Part shown: positions 50 through 33,774 of the stretch, one piece after another | Layout: the number at the start of each line of letters is the position of its first letter | Position numbering within the stretch: position 1 is the stretch's first letter | From: Minisyncoccota bacterium | Lineage (GTDB): Bacteria > Patescibacteriota > Minisyncoccia > 2-02-FULL-40-12 > GWA2-44-9 | Length of the DNA stretch: 33,774 bases | NCBI GenBank assembly: GCA_040899895.1 | Contig: JBBDZW010000023.1 | Coordinates: 1-33,774, forward strand | Direction of reading: 5' to 3' | Made by a program: the position numbers and the translations under genes | The notes under the pieces: model-generated | Told to the model about the DNA's origin: nothing | The model's input: the letters and a program-made list of their open reading frames with translations, nothing else | Database searches by the model: none

Positions 50-802
50 ATGAGAAGCAAGTTCGTCTTCTTTTTCGTTCTCGTCGCCGTTTTTGCGGCG
101 ACGGGATGCGCGACCGGGGGATACCTCGGTCCTCGACCCTACGGGGGGCCACTTGGTGAAGTCGTGGCGGGCAACCTCGCGTTGACCTGCCCCGGCGACG
201 TGTTCGTCGGATCCCCGATCAACAGTTGCCTCCGGCAGCTGGCCAACATCGGTCCGCATTTCGCGGGTTTCCCGATGTACGCAGGCGGCCGTGGTGGTCG
301 CCAGCTCTCACGCACCGAGAAGGTTGCTATCGTCGGCGGCATCGGCGCCGCTGTCGGTGGAGCCGTCGGTGGATGGAAAGGCGCCGCCATCGGAGGCGTA
401 GCCGGAGCGGTTATCACGACAGTGATGACCCGCGGTGGTGGACAACAGCCACAGCAACAGCCGACGACTTCGCAGTCGCCAGTCGTTCAACCCCAGGCCC
501 AGTCGGGTTTGTGGGGGCCAGGCGCGCCGTTCAGCGGCCGTCCGAACTGCATGCAGGTTCTTGGCAGGGAAGTGACCCTTCAGAATCTGACGGCTGACCC
601 CCTCAAGATTTTCTTGGAGGGACAGTACCAGAATCCGGTTGCTGTTATCCAGCCGAGGGAATCGGCATGTGCCGACCCCAATCTGCGCTACGAGGCGCAA
701 GTGCTCCAGACGGCGGTTTCGGCCAACGGCTGGGTCGGTGGAACTCAACATCAGCCTCGGAAGCCCGAGGCGAGGCCAGGACTCATCCTGGTTTGGAGGT
801 AG
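50..802 (+). CDS. Putative lipoprotein with a glycine-zipper segment
   Basis: N-terminal signal MRSKFVFFFVLVAVFAATGC has a lipobox-like ATG|C. The Gly/Ala-rich AIVGGIGAAVGGAVGGWKGAAIGGVAGAV resembles glycine-zipper (17-kDa surface antigen-like) domains. A GGGGAGG RBS lies upstream of the ATG. The ORF sits in a ~65% GC block. Confidence 0.55.
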   Translation: MRSKFVFFFVLVAVFAATGCATGGYLGPRPYGGPLGEVVAGNLALTCPGDVFVGSPINSCLRQLANIGPHFAGFPMYAGGRGGRQLSRTEKVAIVGGIGAAVGGAVGGWKGAAIGGVAGAVITTVMTRGGGQQPQQQPTTSQSPVVQPQAQSGLWGPGAPFSGRPNCMQVLGREVTLQNLTADPLKIFLEGQYQNPVAVIQPRESACADPNLRYEAQVLQTAVSANGWVGGTQHQPRKPEARPGLILVWR

Positions 803-19407: not shown

Positions 19408-20088
19408 CTACAACCTCGGTATTGTTAAAAAACGGTCGGTTAAGGCATTCAATTTATATAATAAATTTGTGCTCTTTTTGATTCGAAAATCCATAGTTCC
19501 ATAATAAGTATTGTGGTTTTCGTATTTCTTGGCTGGCCTTGTTTTAACATATCTAATATTCGTAAAATTCTTTGGTTTTGTTCTTAGATATCGTCTCCAG
19601 AAAGAAACTATTTCTTTCTCGCGGTTTTTGTGTATGGCATTGATATGTATAGAGAACTTAATGTCCATATTATTTATATTATAAAAACGGCGAAACCAGT
19701 CTATCATAAATCTAATAATCTTTTTGTTACTATTAGTAAATTGAACTGTTCCGTATGTCTTTGTGCCTTCCGCAAGATACAAGGCCAATCCTGTCATAAA
19801 GAATTCCCTTTCAGATAATTTATTAAGTTTCTTTGCCTCTTGAACTGCTATTTTTATCGCATTTATTCTTTTCATTTTCTGAAAATTAGCGCCCTTTAAT
19901 CGTCCCTGCAAAATCAAATGCCCCTTTTCGCTTAAGATCTTATTTAGTTGCTGCTCAGTTAACTTGATATCTCTGCACCAGAGGCTAATAGTACTTTGGG
20001 ATACTCCTATTATCTTGGATATGTCTTTGACGCTTTTCCCTGAACTTCTTAATTTCCGAGCCTTAATTTTTAAATCCGATTTAGCCAT
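19408..20088 (-). CDS. Free-standing HTH plus single-LAGLIDADG-motif homing-endonuclease-like protein
   Basis: The N-terminus has a resolvase-type HTH (GKSVKDISKIIGVSQSTISLWC). The central LAGLIDADG-like motif is FFMTGLALYLAEGTK. The ORF lies 79 nt from the intron-containing tRNA-fMet, on the opposite strand. Confidence 0.7.
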   Translation of the reverse strand: MAKSDLKIKARKLRSSGKSVKDISKIIGVSQSTISLWCRDIKLTEQQLNKILSEKGHLILQGRLKGANFQKMKRINAIKIAVQEAKKLNKLSEREFFMTGLALYLAEGTKTYGTVQFTNSNKKIIRFMIDWFRRFYNINNMDIKFSIHINAIHKNREKEIVSFWRRYLRTKPKNFTNIRYVKTRPAKKYENHNTYYGTMDFRIKKSTNLLYKLNALTDRFLTIPRL

Positions 20089-20127: not shown

Positions 20128-20157
20128 TTGAAGTTGCGATTTGTTTATAAGTATAAT
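20128..20157 (+). promoter_or_regulatory. Candidate promoter for tRNA-fMet
   Basis: TTGAAG (20128-20133), an 18-nt spacer, then TATAAT (20152-20157). The tRNA 5' end is at 20168. Confidence 0.45.
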
Positions 20158-20167
20158 ATTATTAAAT

Positions 20168-20439
20168 CGCGGGGTAGAGCAGCGGCAGCTCGTCAGGCTC
20201 ATAATCAAATTGTGACCTATCATAGTAATATGATATGGAAAACTCTCTAAACTGCTGGAAACCCTAATTCACATGAATGGGCAATCAGCAGCGAAATCCT
20301 GAGTTAACCGAAGGAGACGTTCAGAGACTATAATGGGAGCATCCGCCGGTCGGCGGATGATGGTATAGTCCGACACTGTCAGTAATGGCAGCCAACAGTC
20401 AGAACCTGGAGGTCGTGGGTTCGAATCCCACCCCCGCAA
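20168..20439 (+). tRNA. Initiator tRNA-fMet (anticodon CAU) interrupted by a group I intron; CCA not encoded
   Basis: Exon 1 is CGCGGGGTAGAGCAGCGGCAGCTCGTCAGGCTCAT. Exon 2 is AACCTGGAGGTCGTGGGTTCGAATCCCACCCCCGCAA. The joined exons closely resemble E. coli tRNA-fMet, including the C1xA72 mismatch. Confidence 0.9.
20203..20402 (+). ncRNA. Group I intron (IC3-like, ORF-less, 200 nt) in the tRNA-fMet anticodon loop
   Basis: The 5' exon ends in U (CAU|) and the intron ends in G (20402). A GTGAC internal guide candidate lies at 20212-20216. The motifs GGAAACCCTAA, TCAGAGACTA and ATAGTCCGAC parallel cyanobacterial tRNA introns. GACTA and TAGTC can form P7. Confidence 0.8.
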
Positions 20440-20516
20440 CATTCGGAACCCAAAATCCCCATAATGGGGACTTTGGTTTCATTGCCAATTCACCGGATTA
20501 GATTTAGATTTAGGAT

Positions 20517-20873: not shown

Positions 20874-20946
20874 GTCGGCGTAGCTCAGTGGTTAGAGCGG
20901 AGCCCTCATAAAGCTCAGGTCGCAGGTTCAATCCCTGCCGCCGACA
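20874..20946 (+). tRNA. tRNA with CAU anticodon (elongator Met, or Ile2 if lysidinylated); CCA not encoded
   Basis: It folds as GTCGGCG-TA-GCTC-AGTGGTTA-GAGC-G-GAGCC-CTCATAA-AGCTC-AGGTC-GCAGG-TTCAATC-CCTGC-CGCCGAC-A. Pair 1-72 is a standard Watson-Crick pair, so this is not an initiator. Confidence 0.85.
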
Positions 20947-20953
20947 CAATTAA

Positions 20954-30915: not shown

Positions 30916-31570
30916 TTATTGAGCGCCGCAGGGCGCGAAATACTGAGGCCAGGAGGCTGAATGTATTGAGTCCCGAGAGGGACAATATCTCAAGCCAATT
31001 TTTGCGAATTCCTAGGGCGAAGGATATTAAACTCCAAGTATAACCACTAGTGAACCTTCCCAATTTTATATACTTAACCAGCTTATTTTTAAGAGAGTTT
31101 GATTCTGGCTCAGGATGAACGCTGGCGGCACCGATAAGTCATGCAAGTCGAACGGTCCCTCCCCAGTTTCGCAAGAAACTGGGGAGGGATAGTGGCGAAC
31201 GAGTTAGTAACACATTGGTATCTACCTTAAAGTCGGACACAACTAATCGAAAGATTAGCTAATTTCCGATAGTCTCGTAAGAGTAAAGGAGCAATCCGCT
31301 TTGAGAGGAGCCTATGTCCTATCAGCTTGTTGGCGGGGTAACGGCCCACCAAGGCTATGACGGGTAGGGGGTGTGAGAGCACGACCCTCAACGACGAAAC
31401 TGAGACACGGTTCGTACACCTACGGGTGGCAGCAGACGAGAATATTCGACAATGCACGAAAGTGTGATCGAGGGATGCCGCGTGCAGGAAGAAGTCCTTC
31501 GGGATGTAAACTGCTTTTGTCAGGGAAAAATTTTGATTGTACCTGAAGAATAAGGGGTTGCTAACCTCGT

Positions 31571-32492
31571 GAATTTTCTATCGCCTCCTCGGGCGATAGC
31601 GCGAGCCCTCATAGGAATATGAGGTGTAAAATACTTGGCTTATATGCTGGAAAACCTAGTTAATAGTTTAGTACCGCTTGCGGTGACAATCTAAACTAAA
31701 TTATTGTTGATTTAGTCAATAATAATGCTGGAAAATCAGCAGGGAAGCTGGTATAATGAGAGTAATGAATCTGGATAAAAAGACACAAGATATCATAGTA
31801 GGTTTACTTCTTGGTGACGGAAGTTTTGAGAAGAAATCAGATACAATTGGAATTCGATTGCAGATAAAACAGCAGTCGAAAGCAAAGGAATATGTTGAGT
31901 GGCTCTATGGTCATCTCAAGGATTACTGTCTTTCCGAGATAAAACTTAGGAAAGACTACAATCAATATTATTTTAGCACCAGATATTTGAGAGAATTTCA
32001 GAACCTGTATAAGATCTTTTATAGAAATGGAAAGAAAGTTATTCCATCGAATATAAAAGAACTATTGACTTCACCATTAAGTTTGGCCATATGGTATATG
32101 GATGATGGATCTTTAGATTTTAGACCTAAGGACCACTATGCTTTTTATTTAGCGACAAATTGTTTTACGGTTACAGATTCTCAGCGGCTTCAAAAAGCTT
32201 TGCAAGAGAATTTCGGAATATCTTCCGCCGTATATAATAATTTGTGTAGAGGAAAAAGATATTCAAGAATATGCATTGGGTCGAAAGGCAGAGATCAATT
32301 CTGCCGCTCGGTCCGACCACATATTTTAAAATGTTTTTCCTACAAGTTGCCTCAATATACTTAGCCCCCCAGAGACTTGGTTCTAAACGAACCGGATAGC
32401 AATTTTTTAGTTGCTATAAGACGCCGAGCACCCGACCTCATTATGAGTGGGTGGTGATATAGTCCAAAAACGATTGATTCAATTGTTATATG
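31571..32492 (+). mobile_element. Group I intron 1 in 16S rRNA (between E. coli-equivalent GT and GCCAGCAG, ~position 514)
   Basis: A 922-nt insertion splits ...CTAACCTCGT | GCCAGCAGCAGCGG. The 5' exon ends in U and the intron ends in G. The motifs CAGAGACTT and GATATAGTCC (the P7 halves) flank the end of the embedded LAGLIDADG ORF. Confidence 0.8.
31756..32364 (+). CDS. LAGLIDADG homing endonuclease (double-motif), intron-encoded
   Basis: The two motifs are IIVGLLLGDGSF and LAIWYMDDGSL. The ORF lies entirely within 16S intron 1. Confidence 0.9.
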   Translation: MRVMNLDKKTQDIIVGLLLGDGSFEKKSDTIGIRLQIKQQSKAKEYVEWLYGHLKDYCLSEIKLRKDYNQYYFSTRYLREFQNLYKIFYRNGKKVIPSNIKELLTSPLSLAIWYMDDGSLDFRPKDHYAFYLATNCFTVTDSQRLQKALQENFGISSAVYNNLCRGKRYSRICIGSKGRDQFCRSVRPHILKCFSYKLPQYT

Positions 32493-32520
32493 GCCAGCAG
32501 CAGCGGTAATACGAGGACCC

Positions 32521-32551
<31 letters not shown>

Positions 32552-32764
32552 AGTGAGTAGCCGGTTTTATTAGTCTGATGTTAAATCCCATGGCTTAACT
32601 GTGGGGCCGCATTGGAAACGGTAAGACTAGAGCGGCTGAGAGGCAAGCGGAACGTGCGGTGTAGGGGTGAAATCCATTGATATTGCACGGAACACCAAAA
32701 GCGAAGGCAGCTTGCTAGCGGTATGCTGACGGTCAATCACGAAAGCGTGGGGATCAAAAAGGAT

Positions 32765-33654
32765 TGGCAAGGGTACCAAACTAATGGTAAAATTAGATTT
32801 GGTTAGCTAGTCCCATCTTATAGCGATATAAGAACGTAAACTTGGCTATTTCGGTGAAAATCCACAGACACTAATGTGGAAAATACCGAGGGAAGTTGCG
32901 GAGACTTATATTTGTACTTGGTGAACATCTTACATAGAGATAAAAAGGTTAATTTTCGATTTTCAGCTCGTCAAAGATCTATTCTTATCGGCTCCTTGCT
33001 TGGTGATGCTAACATCAACAAGAGAGGAAATTGTCATAGAGTGTTGTTCAAGCACTCCGAGAAACAAAAGTCGCTCCTGATATGGAAGCGACAAGAATTT
33101 GATTCTATCACGGGAATGGATATCAACTATTTTCAGCAGGTGGTTAAGGGAAACATCTATGGCTTTTGCCAGTTTGTCACCCTTACTCATCCTGAATTTT
33201 CTGATATCTATAAAAAGTTTTACACCGCCAGAAGAGGTAAAATAATTCCCGTGGATATTACCAGACTTGTCAAAGACCCTTTGTCTTTAGCGGTTTGGAT
33301 CATGGATGACGGAGCAAAGGATAATGTGGGGATGACTATTCAGACCCATAGTTTTAGCAAGACCGAAGTCGAAAGATTAATTAAGACATTAAAAATAAAT
33401 TTTAAACTGCTCTGTACGATGCGTAAAAATAAAGGGAAATTTATTATATATTTTCCTAAGACAGAGATACCAAGATTATGGAAGCTCGTGAGAGCATTCA
33501 TATTGCCGGAGTACAAATATAAGTTTCCGTTAACCCCGTAGAGACTACACGCCGAGGCTGTCTCAGACAGCATGATATAGTCCGACCTGCATAGTAATAT
33601 GCAGAGCATACCAGAAATGCGTGTGCCATCCATTTAAAAGGATAGTAACAATTG
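32765..33654 (+). mobile_element. Group I intron 2 in 16S rRNA (within GGAT|TAGATACCC, ~E. coli position 788)
   Basis: An 890-nt insertion. The 5' exon ends in U (32764) and the intron ends in G (33654). The motifs TAGAGACTACACG and GATATAGTCCGACC match the tRNA-fMet intron core. Confidence 0.8.
32876..33541 (+). CDS. LAGLIDADG homing endonuclease (double-motif), intron-encoded
   Basis: The two motifs are ILIGSLLGDANI and LAVWIMDDGAK. The start is GTG at 32876, as there is no upstream in-frame ATG. The stop codon TAG is part of the intron-core TAGAGACTA. Confidence 0.85.
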   Translation: MENTEGSCGDLYLYLVNILHRDKKVNFRFSARQRSILIGSLLGDANINKRGNCHRVLFKHSEKQKSLLIWKRQEFDSITGMDINYFQQVVKGNIYGFCQFVTLTHPEFSDIYKKFYTARRGKIIPVDITRLVKDPLSLAVWIMDDGAKDNVGMTIQTHSFSKTEVERLIKTLKINFKLLCTMRKNKGKFIIYFPKTEIPRLWKLVRAFILPEYKYKFPLTP

Positions 33655-33774
33655 TAGATACCCTTGTAGTCCACGCCCTAAACTATGCAGATTAGCTATT
33701 GGGAGCATCGACCCTTCCAGTGGCGTAGCTAACGCGTTAAATCTGCCGCCTGGGAAGTACGAGCGCAAGCTTAA

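Follow-up and report, generated by a model that had tools for sequence, protein, structure and literature searches.

Initiator tRNA gene of a candidate phyla radiation bacterium split by a compact group I intron with patchily distributed relatives

How a gene for initiator tRNA-fMet that is interrupted in its anticodon loop can give rise to a working transfer RNA (tRNA) is the question raised by contig JBBDZW010000023.1, which was deposited under the name Minisyncoccota bacterium. A preliminary description of this 33,774-nt stretch of DNA, referred to hereafter as the window, was made from the sequence alone and proposed that a 200-nt group I intron lies immediately 3′ of the CAU anticodon. 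Since the early 1990s, introns of this class have been described from bacterial genes for tRNA, with the Leu-UAA, fMet, Ile-CAU and Arg-CCU species as hosts (PMC1995217, PMC4033280). The analysis described here indicates that the locus very probably is a functional initiator tRNA gene of the Patescibacteria, also termed candidate phyla radiation (CPR), that is split by a compact intron of group I which lies between U36 and A37 and is devoid of an open reading frame (ORF). The core of the earlier proposal was upheld by three lines of evidence that agree: the match to the Rfam group I model RF00028, covariation in helices P1 to P9 in alignments of 14 and 40 copies, and folding of the single sequence.

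When introns were allowed, ARAGORN placed a tRNA-Met(cat) at 20168-20440 and, after its position 36, an intron of 200 nt, whereas the program in its default mode did not call the split gene in the window. The exon and intron boundaries that had been deduced previously match the sequence and this call exactly. The joined exons comprise 72 nt, lack an encoded CCA, and fold into a cloverleaf that is classified as tRNA-Met(cat). The initiator identity of the tRNA also was borne out: in the cloverleaf C20168 stands unpaired opposite A20438 at positions 1 and 72, and the CUCAUAA anticodon loop with its CAU triplet is present solely once the exons are joined. The D stem, read from the sequence, is GAGC/GCTC which provides the A11:U24 pair, and the acceptor stem is identical to that of E. 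coli tRNA-fMet. As observed in the preliminary description, two of the usual three G-C pairs are present in the anticodon stem. Of the three consecutive pairs that are G-C in typical initiators (29-41, 30-40, and 31-39), 30-40 and 31-39 are G-C here, and 29-41 is A-U (A20195-U20407). The resulting au/GC/GC stem is documented as a naturally occurring form of the initiator, from alpha-proteobacteria as well as from some mycoplasmas (PMC5389676). It is also carried by half of the intron-bearing relatives described below.

The intervening sequence was matched by RF00028 between 20193 and 20392, over the full model (positions 1-253), with a score of 94.4 bits (E 2.6e-23) compared to a gathering score of 50 bits. 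This search, which had been suggested as a check on the initial proposal, thus returned a match far beyond chance. A covariance model of the intron family described below (R1) yielded 228.9 bits for the same intron. The secondary structure was drawn by hand, guided by the RF00028 alignment, and is set out in Table 1; adding 20202 to an intron position gives its window coordinate. Motifs that had been singled out previously as group I hallmarks occupy recognizable places in this structure: the guide-like GTGAC (20212-20216) belongs to the internal guide, GGAAACCCTAA (20257-20267) spans the end of P4, J4/5 and P5, TCAGAGACTA (20321-20330) spans J6/7 and the 5′ strand of P7, and ATAGTCCGAC (20365-20374) takes in the 3′ strand of P7 together with J7/9. 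In P1, U36 (U20202) forms a wobble pair with G20212 (G10) at the 5′ splice site. Guide residues U20210 and U20211, which pair with intron A1 and A2, could alternatively pair with exon residues A37 and A38 to form P10. P7 is expected to be the guanosine-binding helix and to be pseudoknotted with P3. All homologs end in G, an agreement that is not independent since the search patterns demanded that G.

Table 1. Window coordinates of the split tRNA-fMet gene, the helices of its intron, and the flanking signals.
Feature	Coordinates	Strand	Description	Basis
tRNA-fMet 5′ exon	20168-20202	+	35 nt, ends CAU, CGCGGGGTAGAGCAGCGGCAGCTCGTCAGGCTCAT; acceptor strand CGCGGGG, D arm, anticodon-stem 5′ strand, C32 U33 C34 A35 U36	ARAGORN (introns allowed) and sequence
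tRNA-fMet 3′ exon	20403-20439	+	37 nt, ends at discriminator A73, AACCTGGAGGTCGTGGGTTCGAATCCCACCCCCGCAA; A37 A38, anticodon-stem 3′ strand, variable loop, T arm, acceptor CCCCGCA, A73	ARAGORN
Group I intron	20203-20402	+	200 nt, no ORF	RF00028, family model R1, fold z-score
P1 hairpin	20199-20215	+	exon U33-U36 and intron AAU (A1-U3) with guide AUUGUGA 20209-20215 (A7-A13)	
P2	20218-20235	+	7 bp, GUAA (GNRA) tetraloop; intron 16-22 with 27-33	
P3	20243-20247 with 20335-20339	+	5′ strand CUCUC with GGGAG; intron 41-45 with 133-137	
P4	20253-20258 with 20285-20290	+	intron 51-56 with 83-88	RF00028 alignment and pair counts
J4/5 and P5	20262-20281 (P5)	+	J4/5 AAA; enclosed by P4; P5 is 60-62 with 77-79 plus distal stem	
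P6 and P6a	20291-20320	+	intron 89-118	
P7	20324-20330 with 20366-20371	+	5′ strand G-(A bulge)-GACUA with UAGUCC; G122 and 124-128 with 164-169; A123 bulged	
P8 hairpin	20340-20359	+	8 bp; intron 138-145 with 150-157	
P9	20376-20391	+	6 bp, GUAA tetraloop; intron 174-179 with 184-189	
Terminal G (omega-G)	20402	+	final intron base (position 200)	sequence
Promoter-like site	20128-20157	+	TTGAAG, 18-nt spacer, TATAAT; putative function	consensus scan, 10/12 matches
Terminator-like site	20456-20480	+	hairpin TCCCCA-TAA-TGGGGA (20456-20470), then T-rich CTTTGGTTTC; putative function	consensus scan

The minimum free energy (MFE) of the intron was -59.6 kcal/mol compared to -45.7 +/- 4.4 for shuffled sequences (z = -3.17), and the MFE fold of the single sequence independently recovered P2, P4/P5, P6a, P7, P8, and P9. 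The fold also was assessed by comparison. When 14 copies were aligned with MAFFT without regard to structure (A1), the hand-drawn structure was 92.0% paired, as against 33-40% when the 3′ partners were slid by 1-3 columns. Double changes were present at 24 pairs, and the observed values were reached in none of 500 shuffles. RNAalifold on this alignment alone recovered P1, P2, P3, P4, P5, P6, P8, and P9. Model R1 was built from the 14 copies and was used to align 40 full-length copies (A3); P7 and the tRNA anticodon stem, which are absent from R1, were added to the structure for the test with the larger alignment. The structure was 93.5% paired in the 40 copies, compared to 31-42% when slid, with compensatory changes at 32 pairs. 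Cells in P1 were 98% paired and the U.G pair at the splice site was retained in 39 of the 40 copies. Compensatory changes occurred at all seven pairs of P2 and at three of the five pairs of P3 (98.5% paired), and all four pairs of P6a covaried. Three of the five basal pairs of P8 (99.5% paired) and four of the six pairs of P9 (99.6% paired) also covaried. P7, although outside the model, was 100% paired in 40/40 copies with two compensatory changes, and covariation backs both the P4-P6 and the P3-P8 domain. The tRNA anticodon stem was 96% paired, with pair 29-41 present as A-U in 20 copies and as G-C in 18. This pattern of covariation, which includes the anticodon stem, means that the ribozyme fold and the tRNA are both under selection.

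Group I introns of subgroup IC3, which occupy tRNA anticodon loops in bacteria and plastids, have a compact core without P2.1, P5abc, P7.1/7.2, or large P9 extensions. By these features the window intron has an IC3-like architecture: it is situated in a tRNA anticodon loop and contains only P1 to P9 within 200 nt. The modeled structure, with its compactness, GNRA loops on P2 and P9, bulged-A P7, and anticodon-loop location, fits this subgroup. Splicing of the tRNA-fMet intron, and its autonomy, are predicted from these features by steps that follow established group I chemistry. The gene would have a transcript of its own, running from the promoter-like site to the terminator-like hairpin, and the intron RNA would fold into P1 to P9 with U33-U36 aligned on the internal guide, which would place U36 in the U.G wobble. 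A free guanosine held in P7 would attack 3′ of U36. The terminal G20402 would next occupy the guanosine site while A37 and A38 pair with the two guide uridines as P10, and the 3′-OH of U36 would attack after the terminal G, thereby joining the exons and restoring the CUCAUAA loop. RNase P, the CCA-adding enzyme, methionyl-tRNA synthetase, and the formyltransferase would then finish maturation of the initiator.

The intron belongs to a sizeable family that previously was barely noted, in an arrangement that is itself of a known kind. A collection of GTDB species-representative genomes was scanned with a pattern that combined the omega-G with the initiator 3′ half, which gave 98 loci (loci are designated by L numbers throughout). 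In 16 of these a matching initiator 5′ exon was located 187-640 nt upstream, or the contig ended inside the intron. All 16 are metagenome-assembled genomes (MAGs) labeled Patescibacteria, Yanofskybacteria, Paceibacterota, or Saccharibacteria, and 13 of them passed the RF00028 threshold alone (57.8-83.3 bits). A widened pattern applied to a metagenome collection produced at least 120 loci, and added at least ~37 intron copies. The same intron family thus occupies the same site in at least 53 other public contigs, and at least 54 loci with at least 42 unique sequences were assembled overall. The unique introns range from 187 to 666 nt: 38 are 187-319 nt in length and four are 640-666 nt. Several CPR copies are only 187-189 nt. 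The insertion site between CAU and AA and the guide AAUUGUGAC are common to all copies, and those carriers that bear a label are CPR/Patescibacteria. The family is widespread but patchy in CPR bacteria. No recognizable cyanobacterial copy was present in the genome scan or among the metagenome matches listed, both obtained with 3′-exon patterns; cyanobacterial exons probably differ at a base that is fixed in the scan pattern. BLAST searches with the intron gave one marginal match in a phage collection and none in a plasmid collection.

Among the intron copies, the P1 loop is enlarged by a hairpin-like insert of ~45-55 nt in L006 (2019-2260) and L225 (2332-2600, minus strand); in the remaining copies examined it comprises 3-4 nt, often GAAA. 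Most of the 98 matches from the genome scan were discarded as false. Among them were tRNA-Arg genes in which AACC comes after an xCG, and duplicates of the initiator 3′ half beside unrelated DNA. The lone 3′ halves (AACCCGAAGGTCG...CCCCGCTA) were found in Actinobacteria and other phyla, at L005, L018, L020, L022, L033, L043, L050, L064, L072, L084, L090, and other loci. In L018 and in the second match of L013, a full initiator-type 5′ half lies ~2 kb upstream of the 3′ half. These lone halves probably are attachment-site repeats of elements integrated in the tRNA-fMet gene, instead of introns. Uninterrupted tRNAs of initiator type with a CAG in place of the CAT anticodon (CGCGGGG...GGGCTCAGAACCC...CCCCGC[A/T]A) were noted in L007, L013, L096, and L125, which comprise Dethiobacteria, Acidimicrobiia, and Clostridia MAGs and one metagenome contig.

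The window copy is without an endonuclease gene. In contrast, the long copies (L070, L135, L145, and L149/L210) possess ~440 extra bases in P6, with the insert in L070 lying after GCAGCCAAGG in the P6/P6a region. The long copies encode a 141-aa LAGLIDADG protein, starting MTDVAYLAGLIDGEGH, that is antisense to the tRNA; the ORF is shortened to 100 aa in L145. The protein scored 23.2 bits with Pfam PF00961 (LAGLIDADG_1; cut-off 23.1), and its best match in the PDB was the single-motif enzyme I-MsoI (E 3.5e-06). Intron-free alleles were sought by a route that was blind to the intron: loci of homologs of the neighboring peptidase were fetched, five of which had an initiator gene nearby. The gene was uninterrupted in four of the five (L222, L223, L224, and L226) and contained the intron in the fifth (L225; 174.8 bits with R1). 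The uninterrupted exons of the syntenic relatives L223 and L224 are identical to those of the intron-bearing loci L044, L081, and L166, and those of L222 differ from the latter by one base in the D loop. The intron is thus gained or lost within the CPR group, given that some close relatives have the same exons but no intron. The pattern fits the usual cycle of homing, decay, and loss of group I introns within CPR, and homing of the family by the LAGLIDADG endonuclease is suggested by the ORFs. Carriage of the enzyme by some copies would let the intron family spread or persist.

Comparison with characterized introns bears on the origin of the family. The Synechocystis tRNA-fMet intron is 655 nt in length and encodes the PD-(D/E)XK enzyme I-Ssp6803I (PMC1995217). 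The CPR introns resemble the cyanobacterial tRNA-fMet introns in the initiator host gene and the anticodon-loop site, as well as in their sporadic occurrence among relatives and the presence of an endonuclease ORF in some copies (PMC1995217, PMC4033280, PMC8450103). They differ in the host, which is CPR/Patescibacteria, and in size, with the window copy comprising 200 nt compared to 655 nt in Synechocystis. Moreover, the long CPR copies carry an antisense, single-motif LAGLIDADG gene whereas the Synechocystis intron specifies I-Ssp6803I; no PD-(D/E)XK endonuclease was evident in the family, in which the window copy is ORF-less and the long relatives encode LAGLIDADG proteins. The cyanobacterial tRNA-fMet intron reportedly occurs in Synechocystis PCC 6803, Scytonema, Dermocarpa, and Gloeobacter.

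The intron in the tRNA-Ile(CAU) gene of Azoarcus sp. BH72 is an IC3 intron of ~205 nt, and the comparison with it serves as a lead only. In that comparison both introns follow the CAU anticodon, have a GUG guide, are compact, and bear GNRA loops on P2 and P9. They also share AGAGACUA in the 5′ strand of P7, AUAGUCC in the 3′ strand of P7, and the AAA of J4/5 with CC(C)UAA after it. The two differ in their host tRNA, and several CPR copies are shorter (187-189 nt). An nhmmer profile of the family (n=40) produced no match to the Azoarcus sequence used, and any relationship between the CPR and Azoarcus introns would be distant. The same profile gave a weak match (7.4 bits), likewise a lead only, to the Anabaena 3′ half across P7-P3′-P8-P7′. 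The tRNA-Leu(UAA) intron of Anabaena PCC 7120 likewise is a group I intron in an anticodon loop with the same core motifs. It is inserted between anticodon bases 34 and 35, and thus differs from the CPR introns in both host tRNA and insertion position. This tRNA-Leu(UAA) intron is inherited vertically in cyanobacteria and plastids (PMC4033280). No evidence was found for a link of the CPR family with cyanobacterial or proteobacterial introns beyond the shared core, as judged with the Anabaena and Azoarcus sequences used.

Within the CPR, group I introns with LAGLIDADG ORFs reportedly reside in ribosomal RNA (rRNA) genes. They share the host group and the ribozyme class with the tRNA-fMet introns, but split rRNA, are 0.7-1 kb in length, and have the endonuclease on the sense strand. 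CPR rRNA introns were catalogued by Tsurumaki et al. (2024; PMC11270868) in a survey that left tRNA genes outside its scope and in which the word ‘tRNA’ occurs 0 times. The suggestion in the preliminary description that the intron reflects lateral spread is sustained in part. Intron-free alleles with identical exons and the endonuclease ORFs speak for movement or loss within CPR. There was no evidence of transfer from cyanobacteria or proteobacteria, and the likeness to the Anabaena and Azoarcus introns, a lead from comparison of sequence alone, is confined to the core.

Certain observations weigh against a functional, ribozyme-split initiator gene. An A-U as the first of the three anticodon-stem pairs lowers initiation efficiency in E. 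coli (PMC5389676). Pair 54/85 of P4 is a C.A mismatch in 14 of the 40 homologs, although not in the window copy, and a proposed P9.0 was dropped from the structure as its pairing in the family reached only 51%. Outside the 33.8-kb window there may be a second, intact initiator gene, in which case splicing of this copy is not necessarily essential.

The weakness of the proposed P9.0 also is relevant to the possibility that the intron is genuine but needs a protein, whether a maturase or chaperone and whether encoded by the host or the intron, to splice. Many group I introns require proteins in vivo, and LAGLIDADG proteins, which occur in some relatives here, can be maturases in other systems. 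Besides being very small, the intron has few stabilizing elements at its periphery. Nevertheless, the window copy and most family members are ORF-less, yet the core is strictly conserved, and GNRA tetraloops L2 and L9 are retained, as expected if the tertiary fold is self-sufficient. Efficient self-splicing is reported for the Azoarcus tRNA intron, which is of comparably small size. Dependence on a protein is accordingly considered unlikely.

A still smaller probability is attached to the view that the initiator gene is dead and its intron does not splice, with a second, intact copy serving the cell. Such a copy is conceivable as only 33.8 kb of the genome is visible. However, the exons are intact, and the anticodon stem shows a compensatory change across the family (A-U in 20, G-C in 18). 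The ribozyme core is invariant and the helices covary in 40 independent contigs, which is the signature of purifying selection and not of decay; selection on the ribozyme fold and the tRNA together argues against a dead gene. Furthermore, some tRNAs in CPR genomes that were closed proved to have group I introns which made them difficult to detect (PMC8172020).

It is very improbable that the split gene specifies an elongator tRNA-Met or a lysidine-modified tRNA-Ile2 akin to the CAU-tRNAs with introns in Azoarcus, Acidovorax, and Burkholderia. The CAU anticodon is common to all three tRNA types and group I introns in tRNA-Ile2 are known (PMC8450103). The C1xA72 mismatch, A11:U24, G30-C40, and G31-C39 nevertheless all denote an initiator, as does the acceptor stem, which equals that of E. 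coli tRNA-fMet. In addition, a separate CAU tRNA is present in the 33.8-kb window at 20874-20947, 430 nt downstream, in which G1-C72 is paired and the G-C run is missing, and which therefore is not an initiator. Its sequence is that of an elongator Met or Ile2 type. This second tRNA has a C31xA39 mismatch at the base of the anticodon stem. A mismatch at 31/39 is retained in syntenic relatives, as C31xA39 in L221, L225, and L227 and as A31xC39 in L222, L223, and L224; L226 has a normal G31-C39 pair. Finally, the notion that two tRNA halves were joined around unrelated sequence during assembly, for which the metagenome-type assembly and the visibly mis-scaffolded L003 with its run of N at this locus might be adduced, is scarcely credible given that the architecture recurs with precise splice boundaries and conserved neighboring genes in over 50 independent contigs that represent many samples.

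The reading of the locus as a functional initiator gene split by a group I intron adds the Patescibacteria to the cyanobacteria, plastids, and proteobacteria in which tRNA genes with group I introns are known; systematic intron surveys in Patescibacteria so far have covered rRNA only and the tRNA case is hardly described. Introns of this sort are stated to escape tRNAscan-SE (PMC8450103). Because default tRNA finders miss the gene, CPR genomes with the intron will seem to lack an initiator tRNA. If the gene is single-copy, an essential step in translation relies on RNA catalysis in organisms with minimal genomes. A bolder proposal, which we advance tentatively and rate at somewhat below an even chance, is that the introns represent an undescribed, CPR-wide lineage of tiny ribozymes (187-200 nt, no larger than the Azoarcus intron) that resides in the sole initiator gene of reduced genomes, is mobilized by an antisense, single-motif LAGLIDADG enzyme, and has relatives in phage protein-coding genes (L219, below). 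If so, all translation initiation in these cells would hinge on a guanosine-dependent ribozyme reaction. Dozens of natural compact variants (187-319 nt) with rich covariation also make the family useful for studies of ribozyme structure and folding.

The surroundings of the split gene were inspected for transcription signals and for clues to the host. The promoter-like site ends 10 nt upstream of the 5′ end of the tRNA and, with the terminator-like site, suggests a one-gene transcription unit. Flanking genes are common to several relatives at 65-77% nucleotide identity: a helix-turn-helix (HTH) protein is encoded upstream, and the elongator-type CAU tRNA, an M16 peptidase, and an AI-2E permease are specified downstream. 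The upstream neighbor (19408-20088, minus strand) encodes a 226-aa protein with a weak N-terminal HTH match (N-terminus of an IS630-type transposase, E 5e-4), and this gene adjoins the split tRNA in L003, L070, and L091 with 72-77% nucleotide identity. The named homologs of the M16 peptidase are from Parcubacteria-group MAGs, and the sequence data place the window host in the CPR/Patescibacteria with no finer assignment. The ‘Saccharibacteria’ labels of some relatives were not accepted as their protein neighbors point to Parcubacteria (Yanofskybacteria/Paceibacterota). At the far end of the window, positions 1-2000 have a G+C content of 0.54 compared to 0.40-0.48 elsewhere, include many overlapping ORFs on both strands, and gave no match to an Rfam family.

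Additional group I introns were noted in the window and beyond it. The region 31095-33774 contains a 16S rRNA gene that is cut by the window end and bears two large insertions, each with a LAGLIDADG_2 ORF (31756-32364, 143 bits; 32876-33541, 148 bits). The first insertion, of ~860-930 nt, interrupts the gene close to model position 510-519. The group I signals that flank the ORFs are weak, with R1 scores of 28 bits at 31584-31841 and 20.7 bits at 33387-33616, and RF00028 matched 33432-33604 with 31.2 bits which is below the cut-off. Insertions with LAGLIDADG ORFs are typical of CPR rRNA genes. The groundwater contig L152, which also carries the tRNA-fMet intron, possesses a second, more distant group I intron (259-608, minus strand; R1 56.9 bits) in the anticodon loop of a tRNA-Asp(GTC) identified by ARAGORN; we know of no prior report of tRNA-Asp as a group I intron host. 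The family-specific 19-mer CAGAGACTATAATGGRAGC occurs in the viral contig L219 (IMGVR_UViG_3300001533_000408), in which no tRNA is present and where the segment 4543-6495 produced R1 scores of 102.5, 51, and 28 bits and an RF00028 score of 60.8 bits. Two LAGLIDADG-type ORFs (160 and 202 aa) alternate with the intron matches, downstream of an ORF that resembles a phage structural gene, and the arrangement looks like a phage protein-coding gene that is split by related group I introns.

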